From a virus (lineage: Duplodnaviria > Heunggongvirae > Uroviricota > Caudoviricetes): a DNA stretch of 64,000 nt. Shown here piece after piece: positions 2,757-56,055 of the stretch; the stretch's first letter is position 1, and each line of letters begins with the position of its first letter. Under the pieces are notes generated by a model. It ran no database searches, had not been told where the DNA came from, and saw nothing but the letters and a program-made list of their open reading frames with translations. Both the position numbers and the translations under genes were made by a program. The stretch is from the IMG/VR virus record IMGVR_UViG_3300025319_000008, positions 42,433-106,432 of that record, one strand, 5' to 3'.

Positions 2757-3302
2757 ATGCGAGAAATACAAATTCGAAATATATTTGTTGATATTTTCTT
2801 AACTTATTATCTAAAATTCGGATATAATATAAGTTTCGCAGCGATGCATATGTCCGGTAATAATACATTTACTGATGAGCAATCATTGAGCAAAATTTTT
2901 AATTCTATTAACAGTAAAATCCGAGCCGTTAATAAACATAACAGCAAAAATTGTTCTTTCCTTAATTTATCCGGAGTATTAAATTTACCGATTAAAGAAA
3001 TATATCCGGTTTCATTTCAATTAAAACCAGAGGAGCAATTTTGGTTTGAGTTCATCATTAATATGGAAGCCGGAAAATTCCTTGAACTTTGTGATGAAAC
3101 AAAGAATATAAGAGAACTCAGGAGATTGTATTCAATTCCAGAATCTTTCAAAGAAGAATTTTTAAGTATATTCAATAATAAAAATGCAATAGATTTAGTG
3201 AGAGCAAGATTTATCATGGGAGAAAGAATTGGAAATGAACCATCGAGAACTGGATTTTTTATTAATTATACTACCGGAGTGGCACATAGAATACATTCTT
3301 AA
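2757..3302 (+). CDS. hypothetical protein (true start may be the internal Met near 2850)
   Basis: 181-aa ORF with no motif. Confidence 0.3.
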   Translation: MREIQIRNIFVDIFLTYYLKFGYNISFAAMHMSGNNTFTDEQSLSKIFNSINSKIRAVNKHNSKNCSFLNLSGVLNLPIKEIYPVSFQLKPEEQFWFEFIINMEAGKFLELCDETKNIRELRRLYSIPESFKEEFLSIFNNKNAIDLVRARFIMGERIGNEPSRTGFFINYTTGVAHRIHS

Positions 3303-3341
3303 TTATTTTTTGTTTATCTTTGTTTTTTAATAACAATAAAG

Positions 3342-4076
3342 ATGAAAAACAAATCAGAAGCAAGACTTCGTCAATTTGATGTAGCATACATGGATATTGC
3401 AAAAAGGTGGGCTCTATTGTCTTATGCTGTAAAAAAACAAGTAGGAGCTATCATAGTTAAAGACCGGATGATAATCTCTGATGGCTTCAATGGAACGCCC
3501 AAAAATTTTGACAATAAGGCAGAAGATATGGACGGTAAGACGCACTGGTACACATTGCATGCGGAATCTAACGCCATCCTCAAATTATCAACTTCAACCC
3601 AAAGCTCAATAGGAGCTACTTTATATGTTACTTGTTGTCCATGCAGGAATTGTGCAAAATTAATTTTGCAATCCAAAATAGCAAGGGTCGTGTACGACGA
3701 AGATTATAAAACAACTGATGGCGTTGATTTCTTAAAAAAAGCCGGCATACAAGTTCAAAAAATGAGTGAGATTAAAAATAACTATACTAATATTATAGAT
3801 GCCTTTGAACTGGATATGAAAGATAATAAATGCACTCATACACATAGTGCTATTTGGAAATCTCTTACAGAAAAAGATTTAGAGTCTGTTGATAGTGCTG
3901 CTAATTTCATATTAGAAAACCACACAGAGAATCTTTCTTTGATCAGAGCATACTTAATGGAAACGAATGCATATAAGATAAATCTAAAGAATCGAAACAA
4001 AGTATATGTTAAAGCAATTCAAATTTGTGATAATTCTGGTTTAAATACTGCAGATTTCTTGTCAAATCTTAAATAA
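3342..4076 (+). CDS. dCMP / deoxycytidylate deaminase (CMP/dCMP zinc-binding fold) with a ~90-aa C-terminal extension
   Basis: HAESNAI (H-A-E) and CCPCRNCA (PCxxC) zinc ligand motifs; N-terminal FMDIAKRWALLS is typical of dCMP deaminases. Confidence 0.85.
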   Translation: MKNKSEARLRQFDVAYMDIAKRWALLSYAVKKQVGAIIVKDRMIISDGFNGTPKNFDNKAEDMDGKTHWYTLHAESNAILKLSTSTQSSIGATLYVTCCPCRNCAKLILQSKIARVVYDEDYKTTDGVDFLKKAGIQVQKMSEIKNNYTNIIDAFELDMKDNKCTHTHSAIWKSLTEKDLESVDSAANFILENHTENLSLIRAYLMETNAYKINLKNRNKVYVKAIQICDNSGLNTADFLSNLK

Positions 4077-4077
4077 T

Positions 4078-4413
4078 ATGGAATGTATTCCAGAAAATAA
4101 AATCATAGAGTATCCTATTAAAAAATTTGATAATCTTAATAGGGTAATTTATATAGATTGGAATGGAGTTGAGCGTTGCATTAATGTTTTTTGGGGTGAC
4201 ACAAATAAAATTAAAATAAAATATAGACTTTGGCATAGCGAAACAGAAGTTGAAGCTTATGACGAAAAAGGAAACGTTATTTTTCAAAGCTCTGCCGGAG
4301 TTATAGTTATAAAATTTCCAAGATTAAAAATTAAAGATGGAAAATTACTTTATACTGTTGAAAGAAAAAAAATAAAAGAATGGTTGAAAAAACTTGATTG
4401 TAATAAAAATTAA
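4078..4413 (+). CDS. hypothetical protein
   Basis: 111-aa ORF starting 2 nt after the previous stop. Confidence 0.4.
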   Translation: MECIPENKIIEYPIKKFDNLNRVIYIDWNGVERCINVFWGDTNKIKIKYRLWHSETEVEAYDEKGNVIFQSSAGVIVIKFPRLKIKDGKLLYTVERKKIKEWLKKLDCNKN

Positions 4414-4498
4414 TAATAAATTTGTAGAATAATTAAATTCATACGGAACTATAGATTTTATAATTTTTCATACTATTTATCTTCAAAAGATAAAAATT

Positions 4499-5857
4499 AT
4501 GAAAAAAAGCAAAAAAACAGAAGTCTGTTGTGCAGTGTGTAAAAAAGTAGAATTTGTATACTTAAGTAGGGCAAAAAAATATAACACTTGTTCTGTTGAA
4601 TGTATGGGTGAATATAATAAATCACCTAATAATGTAAAATGTTTTTCTTGTGGAAAAGAATTTCACTTACAACCAAAAAGAACAAAAAGACTTACTGATG
4701 AAAAACATATAACTTGCTCAATGAAATGTGCTGGTGAATTAAAAAAAATTATTTACCTCGGTAGGAATAATCCAAATACAAAATATATGATTGATGATAA
4801 TTTTTTTAAAAAAGTAGATACGGAACAAAAAGCGTATTTGCTTGGATGGATAGCTAGTGATGGAAATTTAGCTCCAAATGGTACAATAAATATTTCTATT
4901 CATAAAAAAGACAGGAAGTGCTTAGAGGAATTAAGAGATATAATTTGTAAAGATATTCCAATTTCTAATGGAAAAAAAAGTATGATAACGCTTAGAATTT
5001 GTTCAACTACAATGAATAATGATATTTGCTCACTTTTAAAAATAAAACCTGAAAAAAAATCAGACATAGTTGATTTTCCAAATTTAGAAAATGACGATTT
5101 AAAATGGGCATTTATAAGAGGTTTTTTTGACGGAGATGGGTGTGTATCTTTATTTACTGAAACACACGCTGCTCCTAGTTGTAATATAGCTACTAATTCA
5201 AAATTAATGCGTAAAGGAATTATTGAATTTGTTAATATACCAAATTGGACTAACGATGTAGACAAAATAGAATGGTATGGAAATAATGCTCTTGATTTTT
5301 TATCTAAAATATATGACAATAGCTCTATTAAATTACAAAGAAAGTATGAAAGATATTTAGACATTTCTGCTTGGGTTCCATCTATATCTTATAGCAGACA
5401 TTTTAAAACTGAACATTTTAAATTCTCAAAATCTATAAAAGAAGCTGTATCACCATCTAAAACAAGAGCTTCAGATTCTGGATATGATTTGGTTATACTT
5501 AAAAAGATTAAAACCATTGGAGAAGTTGAATTTTATGACACCGGAATAAAAGTTAAACCTACATTTGGATATTATTTTAATTTAGTACCAAGAAGTTCAA
5601 TAACAAAGACTGGATATATGTTAGCAAATTCAATTGGCGTTATTGATAGAACATATCACGGTAGTATAATAGTCCCTTTAATAAAAATTGATAAAAATGC
5701 ACCTGACATTCAATTGCCAGCAAAAATAGTTCAAATCATACCAACTTCCATAATTCATGTAGAGTTTAAGGAAGTTGAAGAACTTGAAGAAACACAGCGT
5801 GCAGAAGGGGGATTTGGAAGTACAGATTTGAAAAAAAATAAAAATAGTTCAATATAA
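4499..5857 (+). CDS. dut: fusion protein: N-terminal C4 zinc ribbons, a double-motif LAGLIDADG homing endonuclease module, then a complete C-terminal dUTPase
   Basis: CxxC pairs at the N-terminus; LLGWIASDGNL and FIRGFFDGDGCV (LAGLIDADG motifs ~100 aa apart); dUTPase motifs I-V in the last ~150 aa (SDSGYDL, VPRSS, GVIDRTYHGSI, AKIVQI, RAEGGFGSTD). Confidence 0.75.
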   Translation: MKKSKKTEVCCAVCKKVEFVYLSRAKKYNTCSVECMGEYNKSPNNVKCFSCGKEFHLQPKRTKRLTDEKHITCSMKCAGELKKIIYLGRNNPNTKYMIDDNFFKKVDTEQKAYLLGWIASDGNLAPNGTINISIHKKDRKCLEELRDIICKDIPISNGKKSMITLRICSTTMNNDICSLLKIKPEKKSDIVDFPNLENDDLKWAFIRGFFDGDGCVSLFTETHAAPSCNIATNSKLMRKGIIEFVNIPNWTNDVDKIEWYGNNALDFLSKIYDNSSIKLQRKYERYLDISAWVPSISYSRHFKTEHFKFSKSIKEAVSPSKTRASDSGYDLVILKKIKTIGEVEFYDTGIKVKPTFGYYFNLVPRSSITKTGYMLANSIGVIDRTYHGSIIVPLIKIDKNAPDIQLPAKIVQIIPTSIIHVEFKEVEELEETQRAEGGFGSTDLKKNKNSSI

Positions 5858-5964
5858 CTTTGAAAATAGTTTTGAAATTATTATTTCTGAATAAAAACAA
5901 AATATCCGCAACAATTACACAACAAATACGTTTATAATAAAAAATAACATTTAAATTTTATAAT

Positions 5965-7995
5965 ATGCAAGACGAATTAAATAATGATGAAAATCAAGGT
6001 CCGGTAAATCCGAATGAAACATCAACTCGAAAAAAAGACAAGTCAAAAACTCCTATGTTGGATAATTTTGGCAAGGATTTGACCAAAATGGCATTAGAAG
6101 GAAAACTTGAGCCTGTAATCGGAAGAGAAAAAGAAATCGACCGGGTGATTCAGATTTTGAGTAGGAAAAAGAAGAATAACCCCGTCCTTATTGGGTTTCC
6201 CGGTGTTGGAAAAACTTGTATTGCTGAAGGTTTGGCAATGAAAATAGCTCACAAAAATGTTAGTAGGATTTTGCATGGAAAGAGAATTATTTCTCTTGAT
6301 CTTTCTTTGATTGTTGCAGGTACTAAATATCGCGGACAATTTGAAGAAAGAATGAAAACTCTCATTGAAGAAATTGAACAAAATGAAGATGTAATTGTCT
6401 TTATGGATGAATTACATACAATCATTGGAGCGGGTAATGCTGCCGGAAGTTTAGATGCTTCTAATATGATTAAGCCAGCTCTTGCTAGAGGACAAATGCA
6501 ACTCATAGGTGCCACAACAATAGACGAGTATAAAAAATCTATAGAAAAAGATGGTGCTATGGAACGTCGTTTTCAAAAAGTTATGGTTGATGAACCATCA
6601 GTAGACCAAACAAAAGAAATTATCAATCAATCTAAAGGGATGTATGAAGAATTCCATGGAGTTGTATTTGAAAATGCTGCTATTAATGCGGTTGTTGATT
6701 TGGCTGATAGATATATTACTGGACGATATTTTCCAGATAAGGCATTTGATGTGCTGGATGAAGCTGGTTCAAGAATACATATTGACAATTTAAATACTCC
6801 TCCAGAAATTATTCAAATTGAACTTGAAATCGAGGAAACAAAAACACAAAAAGATATTTTTGTTAAAACTCAACAATACGAACAAGCTGCAAAAATTAGA
6901 GATAAAGAAAAAGAATTAAGCAGAAATCTTGAGTTAAGGAAAGCGGAATGGGAAAAAACTGAAAAAAACAATCGTATTCCAGTTACAGAAGCTGATGTAG
7001 CTAAAGTTATTTCAAAAATGATTGGAGTACCAGTAACAAAATTAACTGAAGATGAAGGAGTAAAGCTTATTAATATGCCGGAAGAACTTAAAAAACGTGT
7101 TGTTGGTCAAGATAATGCGGTTGTTAAAGTAGCAGAGGCTATTCAGCGAAACAGAGCTGGACTTAATAATCCAAATAAACCAATTGCATCATTTATATTT
7201 TTAGGCTCCACCGGTGTAGGTAAAACGGAATTAGCAAAAGCTTTAGCTCAATATCTTTTTAATGATGAAGATGCTATGATTAAAATTGATATGAGTGAAT
7301 ATACAGAGCCTCATAATATAAGTAGATTGACTGGAAGTCCTCCAGGATATGTGGATAGCTCCGAAGGTGGTCAGCTCACAGAGAAGGTTCGCAACAAACC
7401 ATATTCAGTTATTTTGTTTGATGAAATCGAAAAAGCTCATCCACTTGTACATAATATTTTCCTTCAAATACTTGATGAGGGTAAACTTACAAGTGGACTC
7501 GGAATAACTGTGAACTTTAAAAATACTATAATTATTATGACTTCCAATGTTGGAACTAAAGAAATGTCTGAATATAAATCTGTTGGATTTGGTCTTGGAG
7601 AACGTAAGAGTGTTGATATTGAAGAAATTGTTAAAAAAGCTCTTAAGGGAAAATTTAAACCAGAATTTTTAAATCGCCTCGATGAGCAAGTTATTTTTAA
7701 TCTTTTAACAAAAGAAAACATAAATGAAATAACCGGTATTCATATTAATAATTTTTCAAAATTAGTAGAGAAACAAGGTTATAAACTTGAAGTTAGTAAA
7801 TCTATGAGAGAAATCATTGCAAAAGACGGTTTTAGTGAAGAATTTGGCGCAAGGCCAATTTTGAGGATGATAACAAAATATATACAGACACCGATTTCTA
7901 AGGATTTACTTTTAAAAAAATTCACAGCAGGCGACACAATATATGTTGACTGGGACAAAAAAAAAGAAGAAGTAAAAGTTACTTCTAAAAAGTAA
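5965..7995 (+). CDS. Clp/Hsp100 family ATPase with two AAA+ modules (ClpC/ClpA-like, short N-domain)
   Basis: Walker A GFPGVGKT and GSTGVGKTE; sensor and arginine-finger regions; overall ClpA/ClpC architecture; 676 aa. Confidence 0.9.
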   Translation: MQDELNNDENQGPVNPNETSTRKKDKSKTPMLDNFGKDLTKMALEGKLEPVIGREKEIDRVIQILSRKKKNNPVLIGFPGVGKTCIAEGLAMKIAHKNVSRILHGKRIISLDLSLIVAGTKYRGQFEERMKTLIEEIEQNEDVIVFMDELHTIIGAGNAAGSLDASNMIKPALARGQMQLIGATTIDEYKKSIEKDGAMERRFQKVMVDEPSVDQTKEIINQSKGMYEEFHGVVFENAAINAVVDLADRYITGRYFPDKAFDVLDEAGSRIHIDNLNTPPEIIQIELEIEETKTQKDIFVKTQQYEQAAKIRDKEKELSRNLELRKAEWEKTEKNNRIPVTEADVAKVISKMIGVPVTKLTEDEGVKLINMPEELKKRVVGQDNAVVKVAEAIQRNRAGLNNPNKPIASFIFLGSTGVGKTELAKALAQYLFNDEDAMIKIDMSEYTEPHNISRLTGSPPGYVDSSEGGQLTEKVRNKPYSVILFDEIEKAHPLVHNIFLQILDEGKLTSGLGITVNFKNTIIIMTSNVGTKEMSEYKSVGFGLGERKSVDIEEIVKKALKGKFKPEFLNRLDEQVIFNLLTKENINEITGIHINNFSKLVEKQGYKLEVSKSMREIIAKDGFSEEFGARPILRMITKYIQTPISKDLLLKKFTAGDTIYVDWDKKKEEVKVTSKK

Positions 7996-8001
7996 AAAAG
8001 A

Positions 8002-8027
8002 AAGCCTGAAATTATTCAGGCTTTTTT
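8002..8027. terminator. bidirectional intrinsic terminator between convergent genes
   Basis: aagcctgaa / ttcaggctt 9-bp stem with a 4-nt loop, followed by a T-run; lies between the Clp ATPase stop (7995) and the minus-strand gene end (8026). Confidence 0.5.
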
Positions 8028-8967
8028 ATGCAAAAAAACTTTTACTTCCATTCCAATATTCTGAATAAGTTCTTTCTATGTGATATGGTAAAAAATTTGG
8101 TAAATTATTTTTTTCCTTTTCTTCTATATATTTAGAACGATTAGATATGTCTGGCCTATTGTCTTTTAACCATTTTTTTGCTTCATAAAAATTTAAAAAT
8201 TCTTTTTTTGAATATTTGTTATTATAATTATAAAGAAAATCTTCAATACTTATCCATGTATTTTTTGTTTTATATGTTCTTTCAGGATTGTATGGTAAAA
8301 AATATATTTTTTCACTTTGAATATATAATCTATAGTCTTGTAGTGTTTCTAAATTAGGATTATTATTCTTAAGAAAAATTTTTGCATCATTATAATTTAA
8401 CATTGTTTTCTTGACAGAGTTAGAGTTATAGCCTTTTGATAATTTATTTAAAAAATCTTCCCACCCAATCCATCCTTTATTTTTAAAAACATCTTTTGGG
8501 CATTTCGGTATATGAGTTGGTAATTTATATTTTATTTTTTTGAAATCACTTTCAAATATTAAATCTGGATATTTTTCGTTAATCCATTTTTTACATTCTT
8601 CATAAGTTATGAAATATTTAATTTTACCTCCGCCACGAGGTCCAAATTGTCCACCAATTTGTAGATTGGTTAGTTTGCAACCTTTTTCTTTGTAAAAATT
8701 TATCCAAAATCTTTCTCTTTCTTCCCAGTTATGTTCGTTAACTATTTCAATTATTTTAATATCTATTTTTCCGCCTTTAACTATTATAGACTGCATCCAC
8801 TTATCTTTATAGGTTTTTTTAAACTTTGAAATATATTTATGTTCACTTAATCGTCCTTTTATTGTTCTTTCTGTTTTTCCTATATATTTTATTTCCTCTG
8901 GTGTATTAGCTTCGAATAATCCATATATTATAATTTTTTTCATTTTACTGATTTTAGCCTCGTTCAT
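8026..8967 (-). CDS. freestanding GIY-YIG homing endonuclease with C-terminal repeat region
   Basis: N-terminal IIIYGLFEANTPEEIKYIGKTERTIKGRLSEH (GIY...YIG...R...E); sits on the opposite strand between the Clp ATPase and clpP. Confidence 0.7.
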   Translation of the reverse strand: MNEAKISKMKKIIIYGLFEANTPEEIKYIGKTERTIKGRLSEHKYISKFKKTYKDKWMQSIIVKGGKIDIKIIEIVNEHNWEERERFWINFYKEKGCKLTNLQIGGQFGPRGGGKIKYFITYEECKKWINEKYPDLIFESDFKKIKYKLPTHIPKCPKDVFKNKGWIGWEDFLNKLSKGYNSNSVKKTMLNYNDAKIFLKNNNPNLETLQDYRLYIQSEKIYFLPYNPERTYKTKNTWISIEDFLYNYNNKYSKKEFLNFYEAKKWLKDNRPDISNRSKYIEEKEKNNLPNFLPYHIERTYSEYWNGSKSFFA

Positions 8968-9102
8968 ACTTTTGAGGTAATATTATGTAAATATGATAAT
9001 TATTTAAGAAAATGAAATAGTTATTATTTTATTAAGATTTATTTTATTTTACAATAAAAAATATTACATTTGTCAACACATAAACAAACTAAAAAATATA
9101 AT

Positions 9103-9792
9103 ATGCAAAACATTATTGAAAAATTTGAAATAGCAGGAAAAAGCGCCAACATAAATAAAAAGCTAATCTCCAGTTCGACCAACAAATTAATTGACCATTC
9201 TATTAAAAATCTATCTCCAAGTGTAATAGAAGAATCAAGTTCTGGACAATTAATATCATATGATGTGTATTCTCGTCTTTTAAAAGATAGAATAATCTAT
9301 TTTTGCCATCCGGTAACTACTGAAACTTCTAATATTGCAATAGCACAAATATTGTTTTTAGAAATGACTGAAGGTAAAAAAGATATTACATTTTATATCA
9401 TGAGTCCGGGCGGGGAAATTGACTCAGGAAGCGCAATTTTAGACACATTCGAGCTTGTTTCGTGTGATATTAAAACGGTTGGAATGGGAGTTGTTGCAAG
9501 TATGGGTACAATGCTTTTATCAAGTGGGACGAAAGGTAAAAGATATGCATTACCAAGTTCAAGAATAATGATGCACGAATTAGCATCTGGATTTGAAGGA
9601 AAAATGAAAGATTTAAAAGTAAGTTATGAACAATGTCAAATAATGGAAAAAAGATTGTATGAAAAACTTTCTAAAAATACAGGACAGGATTATGAAACAA
9701 TATTCAATAAATGTCAAAAAGATTATTGGGTTTCAGCAGAGCAAGCAGTTGGAGAAGGATTAATTGACGAAGTTCTAATAAAAAGAAAATAA
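9103..9792 (+). CDS. clpP: ATP-dependent Clp protease proteolytic subunit
   Basis: YSRLLKDRIIYF; catalytic Ser in GVVASMGT and His in IMMHELASG; ATG at 9103 preferred over the TTG ORF start at 9070. Confidence 0.9.
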   Translation: MQNIIEKFEIAGKSANINKKLISSSTNKLIDHSIKNLSPSVIEESSSGQLISYDVYSRLLKDRIIYFCHPVTTETSNIAIAQILFLEMTEGKKDITFYIMSPGGEIDSGSAILDTFELVSCDIKTVGMGVVASMGTMLLSSGTKGKRYALPSSRIMMHELASGFEGKMKDLKVSYEQCQIMEKRLYEKLSKNTGQDYETIFNKCQKDYWVSAEQAVGEGLIDEVLIKRK

Positions 9793-9828
9793 GAGGTAGG
9801 GAGCAAAAATAACCAAATCTCAAGTAAG

Positions 9829-9860
9829 CGGAGTGTTGTATAATACAACATTCCGTTTTA
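9829..9860 (+). terminator. intrinsic terminator after clpP
   Basis: 12-bp stem (cggagtgttgta / tacaacattccg, one G-T wobble) followed by tttt. Confidence 0.5.
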
Positions 9861-9958
9861 CCTTTTTAAAAAATTAATATTTTTAAGTACAAATTTAAAT
9901 AATTAGATAAAGCGTAATAGATTTATTTTTTTTTCATATTTATTATTAAATATAAAAA

Positions 9959-10885
9959 ATGAGAAAGAAATGGACAGAAAAAGAAATTGATTTTTTAATA
10001 GAAAATGTAAAAAAAATCACATTAAATGAAATAGCAGAAAAATTAGAAAAAAAAATAAGTGTAGTTAAATCTAAATTATATAAATTAGGTATATGCACTA
10101 TTAAATGGTCAAAAGATGAGGATGATTTATTACGTGAAAATTTTCCACTTAAACCAACAAGATTATTAATTGAATTATTTAAAAACAGAACTAGGAGTTC
10201 TCTTCTAAATAGAGCAACATTTTTAGGATTGAAGAGAAATAATGAAGCTAGATTTGTTTATAAAAAATATAAATACAATGTTAATCATAATTTTTTTGAT
10301 GATTTTTCACTTGAAAATTGTTATTGGGCTGGTTTTATATCAGCTGATGGATGTGTAAAACCTATTAATTCTTTATTAAGTATAAAATTAAGTAGTAAAG
10401 ATGTTGAGCATTTAGAAGTTTTTAAAAAAACAATAAATTCTAATGCTCCAATATTCATTAGAGATAACAACTCTTTTGGTACTGAACATAAATCAGCAAC
10501 TATAGACATATATTCAAAAAATATAATAAATAAATTAAAAATAAATTTTTTAATTACTAATAAAAAAACATTTACAGCAGTGCCTCCAACAATAAAAAAT
10601 TCAAATCAAAAAATAGCATTTATAATTGGGTTATTAGATGGGGATGGTTCAATATATAAAATTAATAATAATTTAAGAATAACATTTTTAGGCACATTAA
10701 AAATGCTTGAATGGATTAAAGAAACATTAAAAACAACATTATTTGTTGATGTGAATCAAAAAATACATCAAAAAGGTAAAATATATTCTTTTGCTATATC
10801 TAACAAACCAGTATTAAGTTTAATAGAGTGGGTTAAAAAAAATGAAATATATTATTTAAATAGAAAAATTGGAAAATATGTCTGA
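9959..10885 (+). CDS. freestanding LAGLIDADG homing endonuclease with an N-terminal HTH-like DNA-binding region
   Basis: YWAGFISADGCV and IGLLDGDGSI motifs ~100 aa apart; inserted between clpP and dnaJ, overlapping the dnaJ start. Confidence 0.75.
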   Translation: MRKKWTEKEIDFLIENVKKITLNEIAEKLEKKISVVKSKLYKLGICTIKWSKDEDDLLRENFPLKPTRLLIELFKNRTRSSLLNRATFLGLKRNNEARFVYKKYKYNVNHNFFDDFSLENCYWAGFISADGCVKPINSLLSIKLSSKDVEHLEVFKKTINSNAPIFIRDNNSFGTEHKSATIDIYSKNIINKLKINFLITNKKTFTAVPPTIKNSNQKIAFIIGLLDGDGSIYKINNNLRITFLGTLKMLEWIKETLKTTLFVDVNQKIHQKGKIYSFAISNKPVLSLIEWVKKNEIYYLNRKIGKYV

Positions 10886-12011
10886 AAAAGAAAGTCTCTA
10901 TAATATTCTTGAAGTAGACAAAACAGCATCTCAAGAAGAAATAAAACAATCTTATAGAAAATTAGTAAAAAAACATCACCCAGATAAGGGTGGGGATGAA
11001 AATACTTTTAAAAAAATTTCTAACGCATATGATATTTTATCCAACCCAGAAAAGAAAGCTAAATATGAAAACGATGGCATGTTTAATGATGGTGGTTTTG
11101 GATTTAATCCTCACAGTATGGCGGATGAATTATTTAGAAGGCATGCTGAATCATTTGGGTTTAGAGGTGGTAGTAGTAGACATGCTCAACAAACAAAAAC
11201 TAGAAGAGGTGGAGATTTAAAAATAAGAATTTCATTAACTATTCATGAATTAATTACAGGTGCACATAAAAAAGTAAAATTACAAAGAGAAATAAATTGT
11301 CCAGACTGTTCTGGAACTGGTGCTAAAAATAAAGAATCGATAGTAAAATGCAGTGTATGTGATGGTACTGGTATTGTTACAATAAGACAGAATACGCAAA
11401 TGGGAATGATGATTCAACAATACACTTGTCAGCATTGTGGTGGAGAAGGAAAAGAAATTAAAGAAAAATGCAATTCCTGTAAAGGACAAGGGATGATTTC
11501 GAATAGTGATGAAGTAGAATTTGATATTCCAGCCGGTGCAGTAGAAGGAATAAATTTAAACATTAATAACGTTGGAAACGAAGCAAGAGGCGGAGGGAAT
11601 AACGGAAGTCTTATTATTGAAATAACAGAGATTGAACATCCTATTTTTAAAAGAGAAGGCAATAATATTTTAACTGATGTTTTTATTAGTTATTATGATG
11701 CTGTGATTGGGAATGATTCTTTAGAAATAAATACTGTTGATGGAAACGTTAAAGTCAAAATAGAGCCAGGAACAGAGTCTGGCAAAATCCTACGTTTAAA
11801 AGGTAAAGGAATTCCTAATATAAATAATCCTTCTCAAAGAGGCGATCAAATGGTTTATGTAAATATTTTTGTTCCAAAGACATTAACAGAAGAAGAAAGG
11901 AAATCTATTACAGAACTTAAGAATGTTAAATCAGCTGAGCCGGATAGTGAAAAAACACAACATTTAAAAGGTGTTTATTCTCGCATTAGAGAATATGATG
12001 AATTGCATTAA
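10878..12011 (+). CDS. dnaJ: chaperone DnaJ (J domain plus four CxxCxGxG zinc-finger repeats plus C-terminal domain)
   Basis: YNILEV...HHPDKGG (HPD motif); CPDCSGTG, CSVCDGTG, CQHCGGEG, CNSCKGQG; ATG at 10878 (the ORF track start at 10869 is TTG). Confidence 0.9.
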   Translation: MSEKESLYNILEVDKTASQEEIKQSYRKLVKKHHPDKGGDENTFKKISNAYDILSNPEKKAKYENDGMFNDGGFGFNPHSMADELFRRHAESFGFRGGSSRHAQQTKTRRGGDLKIRISLTIHELITGAHKKVKLQREINCPDCSGTGAKNKESIVKCSVCDGTGIVTIRQNTQMGMMIQQYTCQHCGGEGKEIKEKCNSCKGQGMISNSDEVEFDIPAGAVEGINLNINNVGNEARGGGNNGSLIIEITEIEHPIFKREGNNILTDVFISYYDAVIGNDSLEINTVDGNVKVKIEPGTESGKILRLKGKGIPNINNPSQRGDQMVYVNIFVPKTLTEEERKSITELKNVKSAEPDSEKTQHLKGVYSRIREYDELH

Positions 12012-18491: not shown

Positions 18492-19646
18492 ATGTCAAAA
18501 AAATTAACAACAGAAGAGTTTATTGAAAGAGCTAAAATTATACATGTAAACAGAATAACTAATGAATCAAAATATGATTACAGTTTAGTTGAATATAAAA
18601 ATAGCAAAACTAAGATTAAAATAATTTGTAAAGAACATGGTGTTTTTGAGCAAACGCCAAATGATCATTTATCTGGTTGTGGATGTGTTGAATGTTCTGG
18701 ACTCAAAAAATTAACAACCGAAGAATTTATTGAAAAGTCTAACAAAGTTCATAGTAATATATATGATTATTCATTAGTAGAATATTTTAACAATAATACA
18801 AAAGTTAAAATAATATGTAATAATCATGGAGTTTTTGAACAAATTCCAGCAAGTCATTTGGGTGGGCATGGATGTGGTAAGTGTGGCGGAACCGCATTAA
18901 GAAACACGATAGAGTTTATTGAAAAATCTATAATTATTTATGGATATACATATAATTATGAGTTAGTTGAATATGTTAATTCTATAATTAAAGTTAAGAT
19001 AATTTGTAAGAAACATGGTGTTTTTGAGCAATCACCAGATAAACATTTAGCTGGACACCAATGTCCTTTTTGCGGATTTGAAGAAAGTTCCTTAAAAAGA
19101 GCTAATACTTCTGAATATTTTATTGAAAAATCGAAAATTATACACATAAATGAAAAAACATGTGAACCAAAATACGATTATTCAAAAGTTAACTACGTTC
19201 AAAACAAAACTAAGGTAATAGTAATTTGTCCATTACATGGAGATTTTCAAATAACTCCAAGCTCACATTTGAATGGATATGGATGTAAAAAATGTAATTT
19301 TTCAAAAATATCAAAGGGAGAAAAAGGTATAATTGAATTTTTAAAAAAGAATAACATCGAATTTATACATCAACATAAATTTAATGATTGCATAGGAATA
19401 TCAAATAAATTACCATTTGATTTTTATTTACCAAAATACAATACTTGTATAGAATTTGATGGGAGACAGCATTTTGAATCAGTCAAAAAATTTGGAGGAG
19501 AAAAAAATTTTTTGGATATACAAAGAACTGATAACATAAAAAATAAATATTGTTTAAATAACAATATAAAACTTATTAGAATTTCATATTTAAATTTGAA
19601 AAATATAAATGAAATTTTAGAGAAAGAATTCAACTGTATTGAGTAA
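18492..19646 (+). CDS. zinc-ribbon repeat protein with a C-terminal PD-(D/E)XK (Vsr/DUF559-like) endonuclease domain
   Basis: Five ~60-aa repeats of KYDYSLVEY...K.KIICK.HGVFEQ.P..HL.G.GC..C; C-terminal LPFDFYLPKYNTCIEFDGRQHF; paralog at 34194..35321. Confidence 0.65.
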   Translation: MSKKLTTEEFIERAKIIHVNRITNESKYDYSLVEYKNSKTKIKIICKEHGVFEQTPNDHLSGCGCVECSGLKKLTTEEFIEKSNKVHSNIYDYSLVEYFNNNTKVKIICNNHGVFEQIPASHLGGHGCGKCGGTALRNTIEFIEKSIIIYGYTYNYELVEYVNSIIKVKIICKKHGVFEQSPDKHLAGHQCPFCGFEESSLKRANTSEYFIEKSKIIHINEKTCEPKYDYSKVNYVQNKTKVIVICPLHGDFQITPSSHLNGYGCKKCNFSKISKGEKGIIEFLKKNNIEFIHQHKFNDCIGISNKLPFDFYLPKYNTCIEFDGRQHFESVKKFGGEKNFLDIQRTDNIKNKYCLNNNIKLIRISYLNLKNINEILEKEFNCIE

Positions 19647-24320: not shown

Positions 24321-26378
24321 ATGGTAATGAAACAACATTCATTTTTGGTAGATATCGGCAAAACTATGGTCGATACAAATAAAATAAGCTCAGAAGGAAA
24401 AGACAGTCAAAGAATGTACTGCCATTGCGGTAATAAAAAAGAGCTAAAAAGTAAAGCGAGAAGATTGCTTGTAAAAAAACACGACACTACTGTTGAAGAC
24501 AAGCATAGTATTGAAACAATTAAATGTGATAAGTGCGGAAGCGTTTATGACAGTAAAAATCGTTTATTTCTTATTATTCCAGATGAAGATGAAATTTATA
24601 AAGTTTCATTTTTAGTAGAAGAAAAAGGAAAAACAATAACTCTTTTAAGACAAAAAACATTTGTTAGATACGATTCTTCTACTGATAAATTAAATGATAA
24701 TATTGTCAGAACCGATTCAATTAAATTTGATAGAAGCAAAAACAAAACTGAAATTTTCTTAGAAAAGCCATTACTTGATAAAATATCAGTAAATAATAAG
24801 CAGAATGATGTGAATAACATTACGGAAGAAGTAGGTCTTTCAAAAATAGGAAGATTAGAACATTTTTTCCAATTTTATGATTTTGCTTCTTATGGTGGTC
24901 TTATAAATATATTCAATTTTTTTAACAAAATTGATGTTGTAGTAACTGACCTTGACGATATTAAGAAATTGATTCCTCAAATAAGTTATGCTTATAATAA
25001 TCATGATGTTTTTGAAAAAACAGATGAAATAACCGGAGAGTCAATAACTTATAATAAAGTTGATAGCGGTTTTGGAGACGGAAAAAAAGAAGAGAAAAAA
25101 TTAAATATAGGTGGGTATTTATCCAGATATGTTGAATTGTCTAAAATTTTTCTTTGTGTATCTGACTTCCAGAGTATTTCAACAATATTACTTACTAAAG
25201 GACAAGTGTTTTTTAAAGAATTTATCCACAGTAAAAACATTTTATCTTCTCAAGTTTATGAATTGTTTGAAGCAACATCTCCTACTAAAATATTGGAAAT
25301 TTCTATGAATTGCGATATTAACGGTATGTTAAAAGGAAGTGGAGATAATGATACTAAGGAAGTTGCTAAAAAAGTCGTTAAAATATCAAAAACCATAGAA
25401 GATAGTCCTAACTATTTAAAGGTTAGTCCTTTGATTTATAAACACATAAGCACTCCACAGGATATGGAAATTTTGCTTAGTATATATCGTAAAAAATATA
25501 TTTCCAAAACTGATATTGAAACTTTGTTTCAAAGTTATGATACTGAGCGTATTTATAAATTCTACAGAAATTTAGAAAAACAAAGAATTCAAGATAATGC
25601 CAGTTTTACAATCAAAAACATTAAACACATCTTAGATAGAAATATAGATGATGTTGTAAAAGGTGGCAATTCTGATTATTTGCATTTGTATACAGATACT
25701 ATTAACTCAATGAGGCTGTTGGAGCTTTCTGATAATTATATTTATCGTATTAAAAGTAATGTCGAGTTAAAAACTATACATGATGACCTTGCAGCGAGAT
25801 ATGGAGCTATTAAAGATGCTAAAAAAGCAGAATTTTATAAAAAAGCAGCTAAGGAATTGTCAAACATAAATACAATTGTTGGCGATGTTGAATTGACAGT
25901 TATTCCAACTCTTGAGGACTTAAATAAAGAAGGTATGCTTATGAATCATTGTATTTATACATACCTTGATCGAATTGTTAATAGAGATTATATGGCTGTC
26001 CATGTACAACATATAATTTCAAATGAAAGAGCAACTTTGGGTTTATATCGTAAAAATGGAGGCCTTGAATTTGATCAGTTAAAAGGTTATCGTAACTCAA
26101 GAGCCTCAAGAGAGTTAATTGAAGGAGTACTGGAGTTTATACAAATTAACAAAATACAATCTTCTTCCAGAAACAGTGATTTAACACCTTCTGCCGGAAG
26201 CATAACCAGAATGCATGATTATTTAAGTGACGAAGAAGTCATGAAAATAAGAAAAGAAAGAGAAAAAAAGGAAAATATTGAGATGGAAAAAGCAAAATCA
26301 GAAGGAAAAGAGTATGTTCCTAAGTATTCAAAGTCACATCAAAAAAATAAAAAAGGATTTTTTGGATTATTTGCTTAA
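24321..26378 (+). CDS. large protein with N-terminal zinc ribbons and a C-terminal domain resembling PcfJ-like proteins
   Basis: CHCG...CDKCGS; C-terminal EGMLMNHCIYTYLDRIVNRDYMAVHV...LGLYRKNGGLEF; the PcfJ assignment is from memory of the family and is low confidence. Confidence 0.4.
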   Translation: MVMKQHSFLVDIGKTMVDTNKISSEGKDSQRMYCHCGNKKELKSKARRLLVKKHDTTVEDKHSIETIKCDKCGSVYDSKNRLFLIIPDEDEIYKVSFLVEEKGKTITLLRQKTFVRYDSSTDKLNDNIVRTDSIKFDRSKNKTEIFLEKPLLDKISVNNKQNDVNNITEEVGLSKIGRLEHFFQFYDFASYGGLINIFNFFNKIDVVVTDLDDIKKLIPQISYAYNNHDVFEKTDEITGESITYNKVDSGFGDGKKEEKKLNIGGYLSRYVELSKIFLCVSDFQSISTILLTKGQVFFKEFIHSKNILSSQVYELFEATSPTKILEISMNCDINGMLKGSGDNDTKEVAKKVVKISKTIEDSPNYLKVSPLIYKHISTPQDMEILLSIYRKKYISKTDIETLFQSYDTERIYKFYRNLEKQRIQDNASFTIKNIKHILDRNIDDVVKGGNSDYLHLYTDTINSMRLLELSDNYIYRIKSNVELKTIHDDLAARYGAIKDAKKAEFYKKAAKELSNINTIVGDVELTVIPTLEDLNKEGMLMNHCIYTYLDRIVNRDYMAVHVQHIISNERATLGLYRKNGGLEFDQLKGYRNSRASRELIEGVLEFIQINKIQSSSRNSDLTPSAGSITRMHDYLSDEEVMKIRKEREKKENIEMEKAKSEGKEYVPKYSKSHQKNKKGFFGLFA

Positions 26379-34053: not shown

Positions 34054-34197
34054 ATGGCTACGAAAACTAAAACATTCACATTACCAGAAGAAATTTTGGA
34101 AAAACTTGCTTCATATAGCGAGGAAAGCTTAATTCCTCAATCGGCATTAATTGCAAAGTTATTAAAAGAATTTTTTGAAAAAGAAAATAAAAAATGA
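34054..34197 (+). CDS. small ribbon-helix-helix DNA-binding protein
   Basis: 47-aa ORF not in the ORF track; KTFTLPEEILEKLASY...SALIAKLLKEFF; its stop overlaps the nuclease start (ATGA). Confidence 0.45.
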   Translation: MATKTKTFTLPEEILEKLASYSEESLIPQSALIAKLLKEFFEKENKK

Positions 34198-35321
34198 GTG
34201 GGAAAGCTATAAGTATTGAAAAATTTATTTTTAATGCAAAACAAATTCATGGAGAAAGGTACGATTATTCAAAATTTGAATATGTTAATTCCTCAGTAAA
34301 ATCCACAATTATATGTGAGAAACATGGCGAATTTTTACAATCTCCAAGAAATCACATGAAAGGATATAATTGTAAGAAATGTATGTACGAAGGAGAAAGA
34401 ACATTACCAAGTAAACATACTTTAGAATCATTTATTATTAAATCAAATGAAGTTCATGATAATAAATACGATTATTCAAAAGTGGTATATAAAAATAATA
34501 AACAACCAATTATTATAATTTGTCCAGAGCATGGAGAATTTAATCAAAGACCTGATAGTCATTTAAGTGGAAGGGGTTGTATTTATTGTTCAGGAACGTA
34601 TCAATATGCAAAAGAAGATTTTATAAAAAAATCTAATGAAAAACATAATAATAAATACGATTATTCTGAAGTTTTATACACAAAAAATGATAATAAAGTA
34701 ACAATAATTTGTAATAAACATGGAAAGTTCAGTCAATTAGCCAAAGACCATTTAAGAGGACGCGGATGTGACATATGTAGTGGTGGATATGTTGGAACTA
34801 AAGAAATATTTTTGGCAAAATCTTTTGAAGTTCATGGAAATACTTATAATTATGATAATGTAAAATATGTAAATAACCAAACAAAAGTAGATATAATTTG
34901 TAATAAACATGGTATTTTCAAACAAAGGCCAGCAATGCATTTATTTGGAAATGGTTGTCCAAAGTGTTCAAATTTTTCAAAAGGAGAAATTAAAATTACT
35001 AAAATTTTAGAAGAAAAAAATATAATATTTACATATCAAAAAACTTTTGATGATTGTAAAAATGTTTTTAAATTACCTTTCGATTTTTATTTACCAGATT
35101 ATAATACTTGTGTAGAATTTGATGGAGCTCAACATTTTAAAGCTTTTAAATACTTTGGTGGTGAAAAAACATTTAAAGCAAGGCAACTAAACGACCAAAT
35201 AAAAAACGAATACTGCAAAAACAATAACATTCCATTATTAAGAATTCCTTACTGGGACTTTAAGAACATTGAGACTATATTGACTGATTATTTAAAGTCA
35301 ATCCTTATCAACTCTAATTAA
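34194..35321 (+). CDS. zinc-ribbon repeat protein with a C-terminal PD-(D/E)XK (Vsr/DUF559-like) endonuclease domain; paralog of 18492..19646
   Basis: Five repeats (C..HG.F.Q.P..H..G.GC..C) plus LPFDFYLPDYNTCVEFDGAQHF. Confidence 0.65.
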   Translation: MSGKAISIEKFIFNAKQIHGERYDYSKFEYVNSSVKSTIICEKHGEFLQSPRNHMKGYNCKKCMYEGERTLPSKHTLESFIIKSNEVHDNKYDYSKVVYKNNKQPIIIICPEHGEFNQRPDSHLSGRGCIYCSGTYQYAKEDFIKKSNEKHNNKYDYSEVLYTKNDNKVTIICNKHGKFSQLAKDHLRGRGCDICSGGYVGTKEIFLAKSFEVHGNTYNYDNVKYVNNQTKVDIICNKHGIFKQRPAMHLFGNGCPKCSNFSKGEIKITKILEEKNIIFTYQKTFDDCKNVFKLPFDFYLPDYNTCVEFDGAQHFKAFKYFGGEKTFKARQLNDQIKNEYCKNNNIPLLRIPYWDFKNIETILTDYLKSILINSN

Positions 35322-35573
35322 ATTAAAAGAATCCCATAATGACGGTAATCCTACTCTATCATTTGTAGTAAACCATAATATTGTTACTTCGTTCCATTCT
35401 TTATCACAGGAAAATACAGTCCCTAAACTTTCTTTAAATTCACGCCAATAATAATAAGGCTCTATAATTTTAGTATTTATTCTAACGGTATCACCTTTTT
35501 TAAAATAATAACTTTTTTCTATAAGTACTATACGTTTTAGTACTGAAATTTCATCGTGATTAATTTTTTTCAT
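35298..35573 (-). CDS. hypothetical protein with an LKRIVLIEK motif
   Basis: 91-aa ORF convergent with the previous gene. Confidence 0.4.
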   Translation of the reverse strand: MKKINHDEISVLKRIVLIEKSYYFKKGDTVRINTKIIEPYYYWREFKESLGTVFSCDKEWNEVTILWFTTNDRVGLPSLWDSFNLIRVDKD

Positions 35574-36241
35574 TATTTTTTAACAACCGAATCACCAACA
35601 ACCGGTTTTGAATATATTTCATAACTATTCCCGGTTAGCCCTTTTATTTTTTTAAAATATTCTTTTTCAATGCTTTTAACTCTATCTGAATATCCTACTG
35701 TTTCTGAATAATTTTTTTCGATATAATCATAATATTGTTCTTTTGTTTTTAAATCTCTCAGGTAACAACAAGAAAATAAAACATAATCAACAACAGATTG
35801 TCTCCAGGAATTATAAACACCGTAACCGTTTTGCGTTTTTATCTGTAGTGTAGCTCGTGAACTTACTGTCCTCATTCCAAAAATGTTGTTATTTTCAAAA
35901 AACAATTTACTGCTGAAGTTTCCACTTTCTAATCTTGCTTGAGAATAAATTATCTCTGGAAATGGCACATTAAGCTCATTAAGAAAAAGTATTAATTTTT
36001 CTTCACTAAATTTATCTCCATTTTTTATTATCAACATTTTTTCTTTATCACTATATTTATTCATCATTTCAAGCTCCGTTTCTTTTGTAATAATACCCCC
36101 AGATACGAATGCTATAATTAAGCAAAATAAAACAATCATAGTAAAAAATCCATGTGTTCTTTTAAATTGAAGTTCATTTTCATCAAAATAAAATAGTTTT
36201 GATTTGCTAATAAATGATAATAAAAAGTTCTTGTTTTTCAT
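35573..36241 (-). CDS. membrane-anchored cell-wall hydrolase (mannosyl-glycoprotein endo-beta-N-acetylglucosaminidase / FlgJ-like, GH73)
   Basis: N-terminal TM helix; PEIIYSQARLESGNFSSKLFFENNNIFGMRT...YNSWRQSVVDY matches the glucosaminidase signature. Confidence 0.65.
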   Translation of the reverse strand: MKNKNFLLSFISKSKLFYFDENELQFKRTHGFFTMIVLFCLIIAFVSGGIITKETELEMMNKYSDKEKMLIIKNGDKFSEEKLILFLNELNVPFPEIIYSQARLESGNFSSKLFFENNNIFGMRTVSSRATLQIKTQNGYGVYNSWRQSVVDYVLFSCCYLRDLKTKEQYYDYIEKNYSETVGYSDRVKSIEKEYFKKIKGLTGNSYEIYSKPVVGDSVVKK

Positions 36242-41370: not shown

Positions 41371-42312
41371 TTAATCACTCTTTTTACTAACAAGTTCTAA
41401 ATCGTTTTCATGGTGCCATACTTGGCAATTTCTTTTATCTGACTTCTCTCCATAAACCAAGTACCCTTCGCCTTGCTTCCAATATTCCACTTTGTTTACT
41501 ATATAAGTTTCCTTACCAACATTCTTCGCTCCGTCTTTATTGTGTTCTGTTTCAGAAAATGCATCATTTATTGAAATCACTGTATCTCCAACACTAAAAC
41601 GGCATGAAACATTACTTTTTAACTCATCAATTTGTCTTTTTAATTCTCTAATAACCTGTGCAACAGCATAATCGTTAACCCATTTTGGGTCTTCTATGAA
41701 TGTTAATATAACAGACTCGCATCTATTTAAATCATACAACATGCCTCCGGCTGGTTGTTTAACAAATTCTTTTAATGGCATTGCTTGAATACCATCAAAT
41801 GTTGCTGTTACTATGTTTCCATTTTTGTATTCTGATAATACTAAATCTTTAATGTTCTCAGCCGGAACACGTCCGTCAAAAACAACTATCATACTATCTT
41901 TTGTCCCACTTTGTGTTTTTCCTTTTGAATTTAATGGTAAATAGAATTTTCCAGTTTCATCTATTTTGCCGAACTTAATTCTTCCTTTTATAAATTCAAT
42001 TTTGGTTGCATTTGGTTTAATGTATTCTTGGAATAATTTCGTTGAAGTTGAAACAGGGAGCAGGAAAACACAAACTTTGCCTTTTTTCATTTCTTCGATT
42101 CCTTTTTTAATAAATTTCTCTTTTAATTTTTGACTATAAGGAGGATTAATGAAGTTTGAATTACCCCATTCAATTTTTAATCCATCAACTGTAATTTCGT
42201 TTTCACTGTAAGGACATGGATCAAAATCAAAATTAAATCTACTGTTTAACTCTTCGTAAAACTCTGGTGGAGTAGCATAATTATCATCATTGTTTATGTG
42301 TATCTTTTTCAT
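41371..42312 (-). CDS. phage-type DNA N6-adenine methyltransferase (Dam-like) with a C-terminal extension
   Basis: YATPPEFYEELNSRFNFDFDPCP and NFINPPYSQ are signatures of the phage Dam family. Confidence 0.75.
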   Translation of the reverse strand: MKKIHINNDDNYATPPEFYEELNSRFNFDFDPCPYSENEITVDGLKIEWGNSNFINPPYSQKLKEKFIKKGIEEMKKGKVCVFLLPVSTSTKLFQEYIKPNATKIEFIKGRIKFGKIDETGKFYLPLNSKGKTQSGTKDSMIVVFDGRVPAENIKDLVLSEYKNGNIVTATFDGIQAMPLKEFVKQPAGGMLYDLNRCESVILTFIEDPKWVNDYAVAQVIRELKRQIDELKSNVSCRFSVGDTVISINDAFSETEHNKDGAKNVGKETYIVNKVEYWKQGEGYLVYGEKSDKRNCQVWHHENDLELVSKKSD

Positions 42313-42337: not shown

Positions 42338-42691
42338 TTAATTTACCCCAAACAAACTAGCCAAATCAAACATGCTGTATTTTTTACTTCTTTGTTGGAA
42401 CACGAATTTCACAATTCTTTTTTGTGAATTAGTTAAGTCTGAAAATTTGCTTCCACCTTTATCATTTTCTAAATCCTGGCATCTCCATTTATAGTTTGCT
42501 GACATTTTCTTAAAATGAATAGCAACATTTCCAACTTCTACTTTTTGATGGAAATCTAAACTATTCCACCAAATATCCACTTTACGTTTTTTAGTCTTAA
42601 GTGCTGGATATTGGTCATAATTTTTACCTTTACCCTTATTTAGTTTGTGCAAAGCTAATATTGCTGCTGGAAGCACTGATATATTTGTCAT
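42338..42691 (-). CDS. hypothetical protein
   Basis: 117-aa ORF. Confidence 0.4.
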   Translation of the reverse strand: MTNISVLPAAILALHKLNKGKGKNYDQYPALKTKKRKVDIWWNSLDFHQKVEVGNVAIHFKKMSANYKWRCQDLENDKGGSKFSDLTNSQKRIVKFVFQQRSKKYSMFDLASLFGVN

Positions 42692-55916: not shown

Positions 55917-56055
55917 TTTTTCCAATGTATTGCAATATTAACCATTCTATTAATTGTGATTTATTAATAGCTCTTTCTTCACAAAAATTATCAAACTCCT
56001 TTCTAAGTTCACTAGATAATGTTAGTGGAAATTGTACTCTTTTATCTGTTTTCAT
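55906..56055 (-). CDS. small ribbon-helix-helix DNA-binding protein
   Basis: 49-aa ORF not in the ORF track: MKTDKRVQFPLTLSSELRKEFDNFCEERAINKSQLIEWLILQYIGKNEK; overlaps the GIY-YIG start. Confidence 0.45.
   Translation of the reverse strand: MKTDKRVQFPLTLSSELRKEFDNFCEERAINKSQLIEWLILQYIGKNEK

Follow-up and report, generated by a model that had tools for sequence, protein, structure and literature searches.

RESULTS

A LAGLIDADG endonuclease module precedes a complete dUTPase in one reading frame

The subject of this study is an open reading frame (ORF) at positions 4499 to 5857 of a 64,000-nucleotide stretch of viral DNA (positions 42,433 to 106,432 of IMG/VR record IMGVR_UViG_3300025319_000008), which we call the window. 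The ORF, which like all its features given below lies on the plus strand, starts with ATG and, with the stop codon included in these coordinates, encodes a protein of 452 amino acids (aa). Two four-cysteine (Cys4) units, a GRNNPN motif, and a double-motif LAGLIDADG homing endonuclease module make up its N-terminal two thirds, and a dUTPase its C-terminal third. This arrangement, with zinc ribbons and a double LAGLIDADG module upstream of a full five-motif dUTPase, had been claimed in the original prediction from the nucleotide sequence alone and was borne out by matches in Pfam, PHROG, and PDB that are far beyond chance. Among 5.8 billion protein clusters, a homologue search detected 1068 relatives, and the best 120 of them, 354 to 458 aa long and 45 to 63% identical, carry both domains without exception; conservation is given below for these 120 homologues unless another set is named.

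The endonuclease module is of the monomeric, double-motif type (aa 86 to 295; positions 4754 to 5383). It matched LAGLIDADG_3 (PF14528) with 31.6 bits against a cutoff of 22.5, and aa 91 to 289 matched the PHROG family phrog_4645, annotated as "endonuclease" (E = 3e-32; profile positions 89 to 303 of 308), while PF00961 and PF05204 scored under their cutoffs. The first LAGLIDADG motif, YLLGWIASDG (4835 to 4864), holds the catalytic Asp121 and the second, FIRGFFDGDG (5111 to 5140), the catalytic Asp213; these residues are kept in 115 and 116 of the 120 homologues, respectively. The GRNNPN motif (4760 to 4777), at least 90% conserved, stands before the LAGLIDADG core. Farther upstream lie zinc ribbon 1 (C11, C14, C31, and C35; 4529 to 4603), seen in the sequence, and zinc ribbon 2 (C48, C51, C73, and C77; 4640 to 4729). 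Neither ribbon matched a Pfam family. The cysteines of the first are kept in 54 to 55 homologues, the unit being missing from the others, and those of the second in 104 to 106; zinc ribbon 2 recurs in the free-standing relatives L085, L086, L163, L164, and L165, described below.

An AlphaFold2 (AF2) model of the fusion protein, built on 40 homologues, had a mean predicted local distance difference test (pLDDT) score of 83 and comprised two well-folded domains, with aa 100 to 295 at pLDDT >90. Zinc ribbon 1 was modeled as a beta-hairpin plus a helix (pLDDT, 74 to 82). In a Foldseek search against PDB, the endonuclease domain matched I-Tsp061I (2dch; template modeling [TM] score of 0.66 over 210 columns), the endonuclease domain of the TliVMA intein (7qsu), and I-AniI, so that the model and the fold search agree on a two-lobed LAGLIDADG fold. 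Since both catalytic aspartates are kept, the domain does not qualify as a catalytically dead one of the WhiA kind. The window protein holds all the conserved endonuclease features plus the optional first zinc ribbon; we regard the nuclease apparatus as intact here and the endonuclease as probably still active.

The inter-domain linker (aa 296 to 304; 5384 to 5410) is modeled at pLDDT <50 over aa 297 to 301 and contains no in-frame start codon. It leads into a complete dUTPase domain of the trimeric type (aa 305 to 445; 5411 to 5833). PF00692 matched aa 316 to 442 (E = 1e-14; 54.8 bits against a cutoff of 22), and in a phmmer search of PDB sequences aa 307 to 443 aligned to residues 11 to 147 of the 149-aa shrimp dUTPase, dozens more solved dUTPases also matching. 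The fold of the C-terminal domain in the AF2 monomer matched PDB dUTPases with TM scores of 0.7 to 0.8 (Foldseek). The NCBIfam dUTPase models scored under their naming cutoffs (TIGR00576, 86.6 against 102.55; NF001862, 74.7 against 103). All five dUTPase motifs can be read in the sequence: ASDSGYDL (motif 1; aa 324 to 331; 5468 to 5491), VPRSS (motif 2; aa 363 to 367; 5585 to 5599), GVIDRTYHG (motif 3; aa 380 to 388; 5636 to 5662), KIVQII (motif 4; aa 409 to 414; 5723 to 5740), and RAEGGFGSTD (motif 5; aa 434 to 443; 5798 to 5827). The arm carrying motif 5 is disordered in the AF2 model, as is usual for dUTPases. In 151 aligned sequences covering both the intact and the degenerate class of the family (see below), D330, R365, D383, Q412, and R434 are conserved at or near 100%. 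This full conservation of the motifs predicts that the dUTPase half is an active enzyme; it would hydrolyze dUTP to dUMP, thereby excluding uracil from phage DNA and supplying thymidylate synthesis.

The fusion is a genuine single polypeptide

The gene is identical at every base in five loci from five different samples or assemblies, as are the 400 nucleotides (nt) before it and the 800 nt after it. At least 22 contigs, the longest of 503 kb, encode exactly this protein. In-frame ATG, GTG, or TTG codons are found at codons 1, 13, 36, 75, 97, 114, 162, 172, 237, 331, and 374. The stretch from codon 238 to codon 330 has none, which leaves no start from which a dUTPase complete with its first strand and motif 1 could be translated alone. 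The remaining two frames are filled with stops at the junction. Whereas the endonuclease genes of L163, L164, L165, L085, and L086 have a start and a stop codon of their own, the endonuclease of the fusion does not. The junction motif L.RK...Y.D...WVPS runs free of gaps across the homologues. A stop codon or frameshift separating the two genes, named beforehand as the observation that would speak against the original prediction, is thus effectively excluded by the five identical assemblies and the gap-free junction in more than 120 homologues.

A Pfam scan with E values up to 1 found no Hint or intein-splicing family in the fusion protein, nor does the protein contain a Cys/Ser ... His-Asn-Cys/Ser/Thr splice junction. 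The junction after the endonuclease reads ...AWVPSISYSRHFKTEHFKF, and the whole dUTPase lies downstream of it. The earlier statement that this is not a canonical intein holds: there is neither a Hint domain nor a splice junction, and the module precedes an entire dUTPase. The fusion is a genuine single polypeptide, and the chimera is old and conserved, not a product of recent chance.

The nearest free-standing relatives of the endonuclease lie beside dut

A search with the endonuclease alone returned mostly fused proteins, plus free-standing ones at 42 to 60% identity. The closest free-standing relatives, 39 to 49% identical to the module, adjoin a separate dut gene wherever they could be placed. 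We then counted dUTPase neighbors among 165 fetched loci with a LAGLIDADG match, 15 of which score at least 120 bits against the window module. Seven of these 15 are fused to a dUTPase, seven have a separate dUTPase within 83 bp, and one (L166) is an exception; among the roughly 150 weaker LAGLIDADG loci, essentially none has a dUTPase nearby. The L166 gene (3001 to 4323) encodes a 440-aa relative, 47% identical over aa 87 to 297, whose N-terminal extension is long, acidic, and rich in Thr; it lacks a dUTPase domain, and no dut gene adjoins it. A more remote free-standing relative is N267L of chlorovirus FR483 (A7J6X1; 282 aa; 37% identity), known from automatic annotation only.

The original prediction had pointed to related phages as the place to look for separate endonuclease and dut genes, and such a pair is present in L163. 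Here the endonuclease gene, 49% identical to the fusion module at the protein level, is followed after 42 nt by dut, in the same order and frame as in the fusion. A ClpB-like gene lies downstream, as in the window, and is 62% identical to the window's, which identifies L163 as a related phage. The 42-nt spacer contains three in-frame TAA codons (2853 to 2897). The L163 arrangement is compatible with a state preceding the fusion and also with later fission of a fused gene.

In L164, L085, L086, and L087 the order is dut followed by the endonuclease gene, and in L165 the two are divergent and lie next to ClpP. The endonuclease ORF of L164 (2550 to 3993) directly follows a dut gene ending in ...QMLIL...LTQTARGANGFGSTGI and itself ends in a second dUTPase motif 4-5 tail, QVLL...LDETGRGNGGFGSTGSR. 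In the classic footprint known from mitochondria, an endonuclease gene inserts in a coding region and supplies a replacement gene end. By analogy, the duplicated dut tail suggests that the endonuclease gene entered dut in its 3' part in this way, bringing a new gene end along. The dut genes beside the free-standing copies fall into at least two dUTPase subfamilies, which indicates that the endonuclease has moved between dut backgrounds. Taken together, the free-standing relatives beside dut and the footprint in L164 point to descent of the fused module from a dut-targeting endonuclease gene minus its stop codon. Most likely, the fusion arose when a free-standing endonuclease gene upstream of dut lost its stop codon. 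Of the two alternatives first offered, a gene that had lost its stop or a functional chimera, the evidence supports both, one after the other: stop loss is the most likely origin, and an old chimera is what is now found.

A different arrangement was seen at three loci, L146 (5510 to 7315), L122 (5265 to 7179), and L044 (5236 to 7181), one of which lies in a Sarcina chromosome. In them an insert of about 1.4 kb interrupts dut after motif 2 (PRSS...) and before motif 3 (IDxxY); it carries a more distant LAGLIDADG ORF, the product of which has helix-turn-helix-like N-terminal repeats. Rfam searches, at the gathering threshold or at E ≤ 1, found no group I intron at the three loci, where the interruption may be an intron or a split gene.

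The endonuclease decays in frame across the family

We then searched 1.84 billion cluster representatives at 50% identity with the dUTPase domain only. At least 495 representatives were found at E ≤ 1e-30, and the best 150 all have an N-terminal extension. These 150 fall into an intact class (39; 26%), in which both catalytic acidic residues are kept, and a degenerate class (111; 74%), in which one or both are lost. The other endonuclease features follow the same division. The NPN motif and the zinc ribbons are nearly always kept in the intact class and nearly always lost in the degenerate one, so that acidic residues, motif, and ribbons disappear together, GRNNPN going with the catalytic residues. 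The basic residues K187, R281, and K282 are kept in 38 to 40 of 40 intact sequences (the 39 plus the window protein) and mostly lost in the degenerate class. The median length of the extension is 271 aa in the intact class and 173 aa (range, 46 to 285 aa) in the degenerate one. The identity of the N-terminal domain is 38%, against 53% for the dUTPase, in the intact class and 21% against 54% in the degenerate class. A dead form is exemplified by L083, in which the motifs read WVAGGGE and FDNCGE and the zinc ribbons are lacking. Thus, the fusion itself stands as originally proposed, with the correction that most members of the family carry a dead endonuclease remnant and not an intact module.

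Dead members keep lobe 2 (equivalent to aa 205 to 295) far better than lobe 1. Among the degenerate sequences, R207 is kept in 80 of 111, G208 in 88, and D266 in 96. This retention may reflect a structural role of lobe 2 next to the dUTPase.

Plain dUTPases of 139 to 165 aa from the same subfamily, 50 to 60% identical, occur on contigs of up to 183 kb. When the dUTPase domain was searched against clusters at 90% identity, no protein longer than 275 aa was returned, from which we infer that the candidates had been length-matched to the short query.

Compared pairwise, the 120 intact homologues have a mean identity of 49% in the endonuclease and 61% in the dUTPase, and the pair identities of the two domains are correlated (r = 0.71), which indicates co-inheritance of both halves. 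The conservation of the two domains indicates that both are under purifying selection. Judged by its sequences, the family shows a cycle of gain, decay, and loss, as in the classical life cycle of homing endonucleases.

Genomic setting and distribution

A chaperone/protease cluster encoding a ClpB/ClpC-like ATPase, ClpP, and DnaJ (5965 to 12011) lies directly downstream of the fusion gene, and a dCMP deaminase gene (3342 to 4076) lies two genes upstream. The window also encodes an ART-PolyVal protein (1581 to 2744), PcfJ (24321 to 26378), a peptidoglycan glucosaminidase (35573 to 36241), a phage-type Dam (41371 to 42312), and topoisomerase IA. Many of its ORFs have no family match, and no tRNA genes or Rfam families were found in its 64 kb. 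A scan for promoters and terminators around the fusion gene gave counts no better than those in shuffled sequence.

The window contains a second, free-standing double-motif LAGLIDADG gene (9959 to 10885, plus strand; 308 aa) between the genes for ClpP (9070 to 9792) and DnaJ (10869 to 12011). Its product is 31% identical to aa 95 to 216 of the fusion, and its N-terminal region is without cysteine zinc ribbons. A GIY-YIG domain protein (54831 to 55925, minus strand) and two DUF4379 "treble-clef zinc finger" proteins (18492 to 19646 and 34194 to 35321, both plus strand) may be further selfish nuclease genes of this genome.

The window's ClpB-like gene resembles those in "uncultured phage" records of 634 to 642 kb. 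With a 6-kb query (window positions 3000 to 9000), this gene alone was similar at the DNA level to deposited huge phages (LR745206 and LR756502; 67% over 1.5 kb). An archaeal origin, implied by the NCBI label "uncultured archaeon" of QBM02752.1, was considered and rejected in view of the genes for glucosaminidase, phage-type Dam, ART-PolyVal, PcfJ, ClpP, ClpB-like ATPase, and DnaJ. A huge bacteriophage is the better reading of this gene content, in a window that contains no capsid or terminase gene, and QBM02752.1 looks like a mis-binned huge bacteriophage.

Fused homologues were found on phage-like contigs of 630 to 770 kb and also in bacterial chromosomes, the guanine-plus-cytosine (GC) content ranging from 27 to 30% in huge phages to 62 to 73% in bacterial chromosomes. 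In one bacterial locus (L003; 67% GC), the gene is flanked by purC, purB, and genes for an AraC-family regulator and PNPase. A second (L162), on a 585-kb contig of 73.5% GC, has genes for AspRS, MeaB, a PTR2 transporter, and glycosyltransferases around it, and the same PTR2 neighbor recurs in a Salinibacter metagenome-assembled genome (L001). The fusion is thus not confined to phages, a correction to the original prediction. A tblastn search of 50,697 deposited phage genome records gave matches only to distant free-standing LAGLIDADG genes and none to a fused homologue. A 48.7-kb viral contig (L082) carries both a plain dUTPase-like ORF (1189 to 1581) and a fused endonuclease-dUTPase gene (4106 to 5287), with tRNA-Thr(TGT) genes at 1848 to 1923 and 3970 to 4043. 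In a Foldseek search against models of viral proteins, a 386-aa "dUTP diphosphatase" of Clandestinovirus (A0A8F8KKJ2) aligned over 398 columns with 23% identity; this protein, known from automatic annotation only, may share the fused architecture.

DISCUSSION

We think it reasonably probable that the product of the window gene is an active dUTPase joined to a homing endonuclease of a dut-specialized clade, which derives from an upstream free-standing gene and has probably kept its activity. Nuclease activity, a target site, and homing are what we infer here from sequence and models. In outline, a free-standing endonuclease gene directly upstream of dut would have lost its stop codon and become an N-terminal domain, a fusion that the dUTPase would tolerate thanks to the flexible linker ahead of its first beta-strand. 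The monomeric two-lobed core, with both catalytic aspartates and flanking basic residues, would cut DNA, and the two zinc ribbons together with GRNNPN would extend DNA binding. The targets would be endonuclease-free dut alleles of co-infecting relatives, into which recombinational repair would then copy the endonuclease-plus-dut unit. In-frame fusion would guarantee expression of the selfish module and would shield it from decay by frameshift or nonsense mutations, since such mutations cost the phage its dUTPase as well. In the family at large, the endonuclease later decays in frame and shrinks.

Several observations weigh against this reading. Active mobility would explain the correlation between the two domains (r = 0.71) no better than long vertical co-inheritance, and so possibly domestication, would. 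In three quarters of the family a dead remnant has been retained instead of being deleted, with R207, G208, and D266 conserved, which hints at a non-nuclease role, maybe in the window protein too. Synteny is not conserved: the fused genes of L081, L161, and the window have unlike flanks, and the ClpB-like neighbor is shared by L163 alone, where the two genes are separate; since flanks are not conserved among the huge phages examined, no pair of empty and occupied sites was found for the fused form. In favor of a life cycle, the intact (158), degenerate (180), and extension-free (39) states are intermixed on dUTPase-domain similarity, 49 degenerate sequences having an intact nearest neighbor and 12 plain ones an extended nearest neighbor; this analysis is crude, however, and truncated contigs and differences in gene calling may distort it. 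A neighbor-joining tree of the endonuclease modules, likewise crude and too weak to count fusion events, is star-like, with the free-standing forms mostly near the base and one group of them inside the fused diversity.

The first alternative, that the module no longer homes and has been domesticated, deserves consideration even if we find it improbable. It would serve the dUTPase or the phage in DNA binding, whether sequence specific or general, in targeting, or in regulation; it might, for instance, tether the dUTPase to replicating DNA or act as a non-copying weapon against the dut of a competitor or host. Besides the covariation of the two domains and the conserved lobe-2 scaffold of the dead N-terminal domains, which 74% of representatives keep, such a role would suit the retention of the fusion across very distant genomes, from huge phages to bacterial chromosomes, and the fact that none of the 150 nearest cluster representatives lacks the extension. 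The intact class, the window gene included, however, keeps the aspartates, the basic pocket, NPN, and the zinc ribbons, which elsewhere are lost together, as is expected if DNA cleavage is the selected function. In the dead class the N-terminal domains, at 21% identity against 54% for the dUTPase, diverge much faster, and the shortest is down to 46 aa, which looks like decay and not like the acquisition of a constrained new function. Moreover, plain dUTPases of the same subfamily function without the domain, and the free-standing relatives with an insertion footprint show the clade to be mobile. A wider proposal, which we put forward with equal reserve, is that the family constitutes a widespread two-function enzyme class in phages, bacteria, and giant viruses, in which the dead scaffold would have been exapted for DNA tethering or regulation and the intact nuclease would be a weapon against rival dut genes.

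That the endonuclease is an inert passenger, dead or without a target and kept only because in-frame deletion is rare, strikes us as unlikely. Most of the family is in the dead state, and no target allele was found for the window phage, but none of the conserved catalytic and DNA-binding features is missing from the window copy, which also has both zinc ribbons, and the mean endonuclease identity of 52% among its closest homologues is unlike neutral decay. Very improbable is post-translational removal of the endonuclease by splicing or autoproteolysis to free the dUTPase: endonuclease domains of the PF14528 and PF05204 families are common in inteins, and the fold match to TliVMA is in line with that, but no splicing domain was detected, the N-extein would be limited to a few residues, the C-terminal junction, which reads ...SRHFKTEHFKF, is without His-Asn and a nucleophile, and the module stands in front of the whole dUTPase and not within a conserved motif. 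An artefact, in which a missed stop, a frameshift, or a chimeric assembly joined two genes, might be suspected because separate pairs occur in relatives and because the region is rich in AT and homopolymer runs of A are frequent in it, but it is effectively refuted by the absence of any difference among five independent assemblies, flanks included, by the presence of the protein on at least 22 contigs, by the same unbroken junction in more than 120 diverged homologues, and by the lack of a start codon for a separate dUTPase, with stops filling the other two frames.

Introns, inteins, and free-standing genes are the usual settings of homing endonucleases. In phage T4, mobE, which lies between nrdA and nrdB, and the seg genes are free-standing homing endonuclease genes of the GIY-YIG or HNH type that are kept separate from their neighbors. 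The window endonuclease resembles them as a phage selfish endonuclease tied to one nucleotide-metabolism gene, and its relatives adjoin their presumed target in variable orientation; unlike them, it is of the LAGLIDADG type and is translationally fused to the product of the target gene, here dut. In fungal mitochondria, LAGLIDADG endonucleases are joined to rps3, and atp6, cox, and nad genes carry endonuclease genes at their 3' ends, in frame and with the gene end duplicated. There too the endonuclease ORF is expressed within a host protein, and L164 shows the same footprint of a duplicated 3' end. Those fusions, however, are organellar and mostly C-terminal or internal, whereas the present one is N-terminal and found in phages and bacteria, in hundreds of clusters.

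With LAGLIDADG inteins such as PI-SceI and TliVMA, the module shares a similar fold and a position in frame with a host enzyme; in contrast to them, it has no Hint domain or splice junctions, lies outside the host protein, and stays attached. Like I-Tsp061I, I-DmoI, and I-AniI, it has a double-motif, pseudo-dimeric fold with both catalytic acids, but it has no intron, is preceded by additional Cys4 zinc ribbons at the N terminus, forms one protein with an enzyme, and shares about 20% sequence identity with them. Betaretroviruses (Mason-Pfizer monkey virus and mouse mammary tumor virus) produce, by ribosomal frameshifting, a transframe fusion of nucleocapsid, with its CCHC zinc knuckle, and dUTPase. 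This likewise places a zinc-binding nucleic acid module N-terminal to a trimeric dUTPase in one polypeptide, except that the module is a nucleocapsid and not a nuclease and that frameshifting is needed to make it.

A full-text search of one literature collection found no description of a LAGLIDADG-dUTPase fusion, and the family is apparently undescribed. Its kind is already known from free-standing phage endonucleases beside nucleotide-metabolism genes, from in-frame mitochondrial fusions, and from inteins. What is new is the combination of LAGLIDADG type, N-terminal position, absence of splicing, dut as the partner, distribution across domains, and a visible series of decay. Annotation of the fusion genes in databases simply as "dUTPase" hides the nuclease, and the intact members are candidates for new rare-cutting enzymes with zinc-ribbon extensions.

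In this family a LAGLIDADG enzyme is joined, without splicing machinery, to the N terminus of an enzyme whose gene is the presumed target of its free-standing cousins. The stages stand side by side: free-standing genes by dut, an insertion footprint, intact fusions, dead and shrinking remnants, and plain dUTPases. The family is thereby a natural data set for the cycle of gain, decay, and loss of selfish endonucleases, and it can inform the questions of how that cycle changes when the endonuclease is fused to a useful gene and of whether dead endonucleases can be recruited to a new role.

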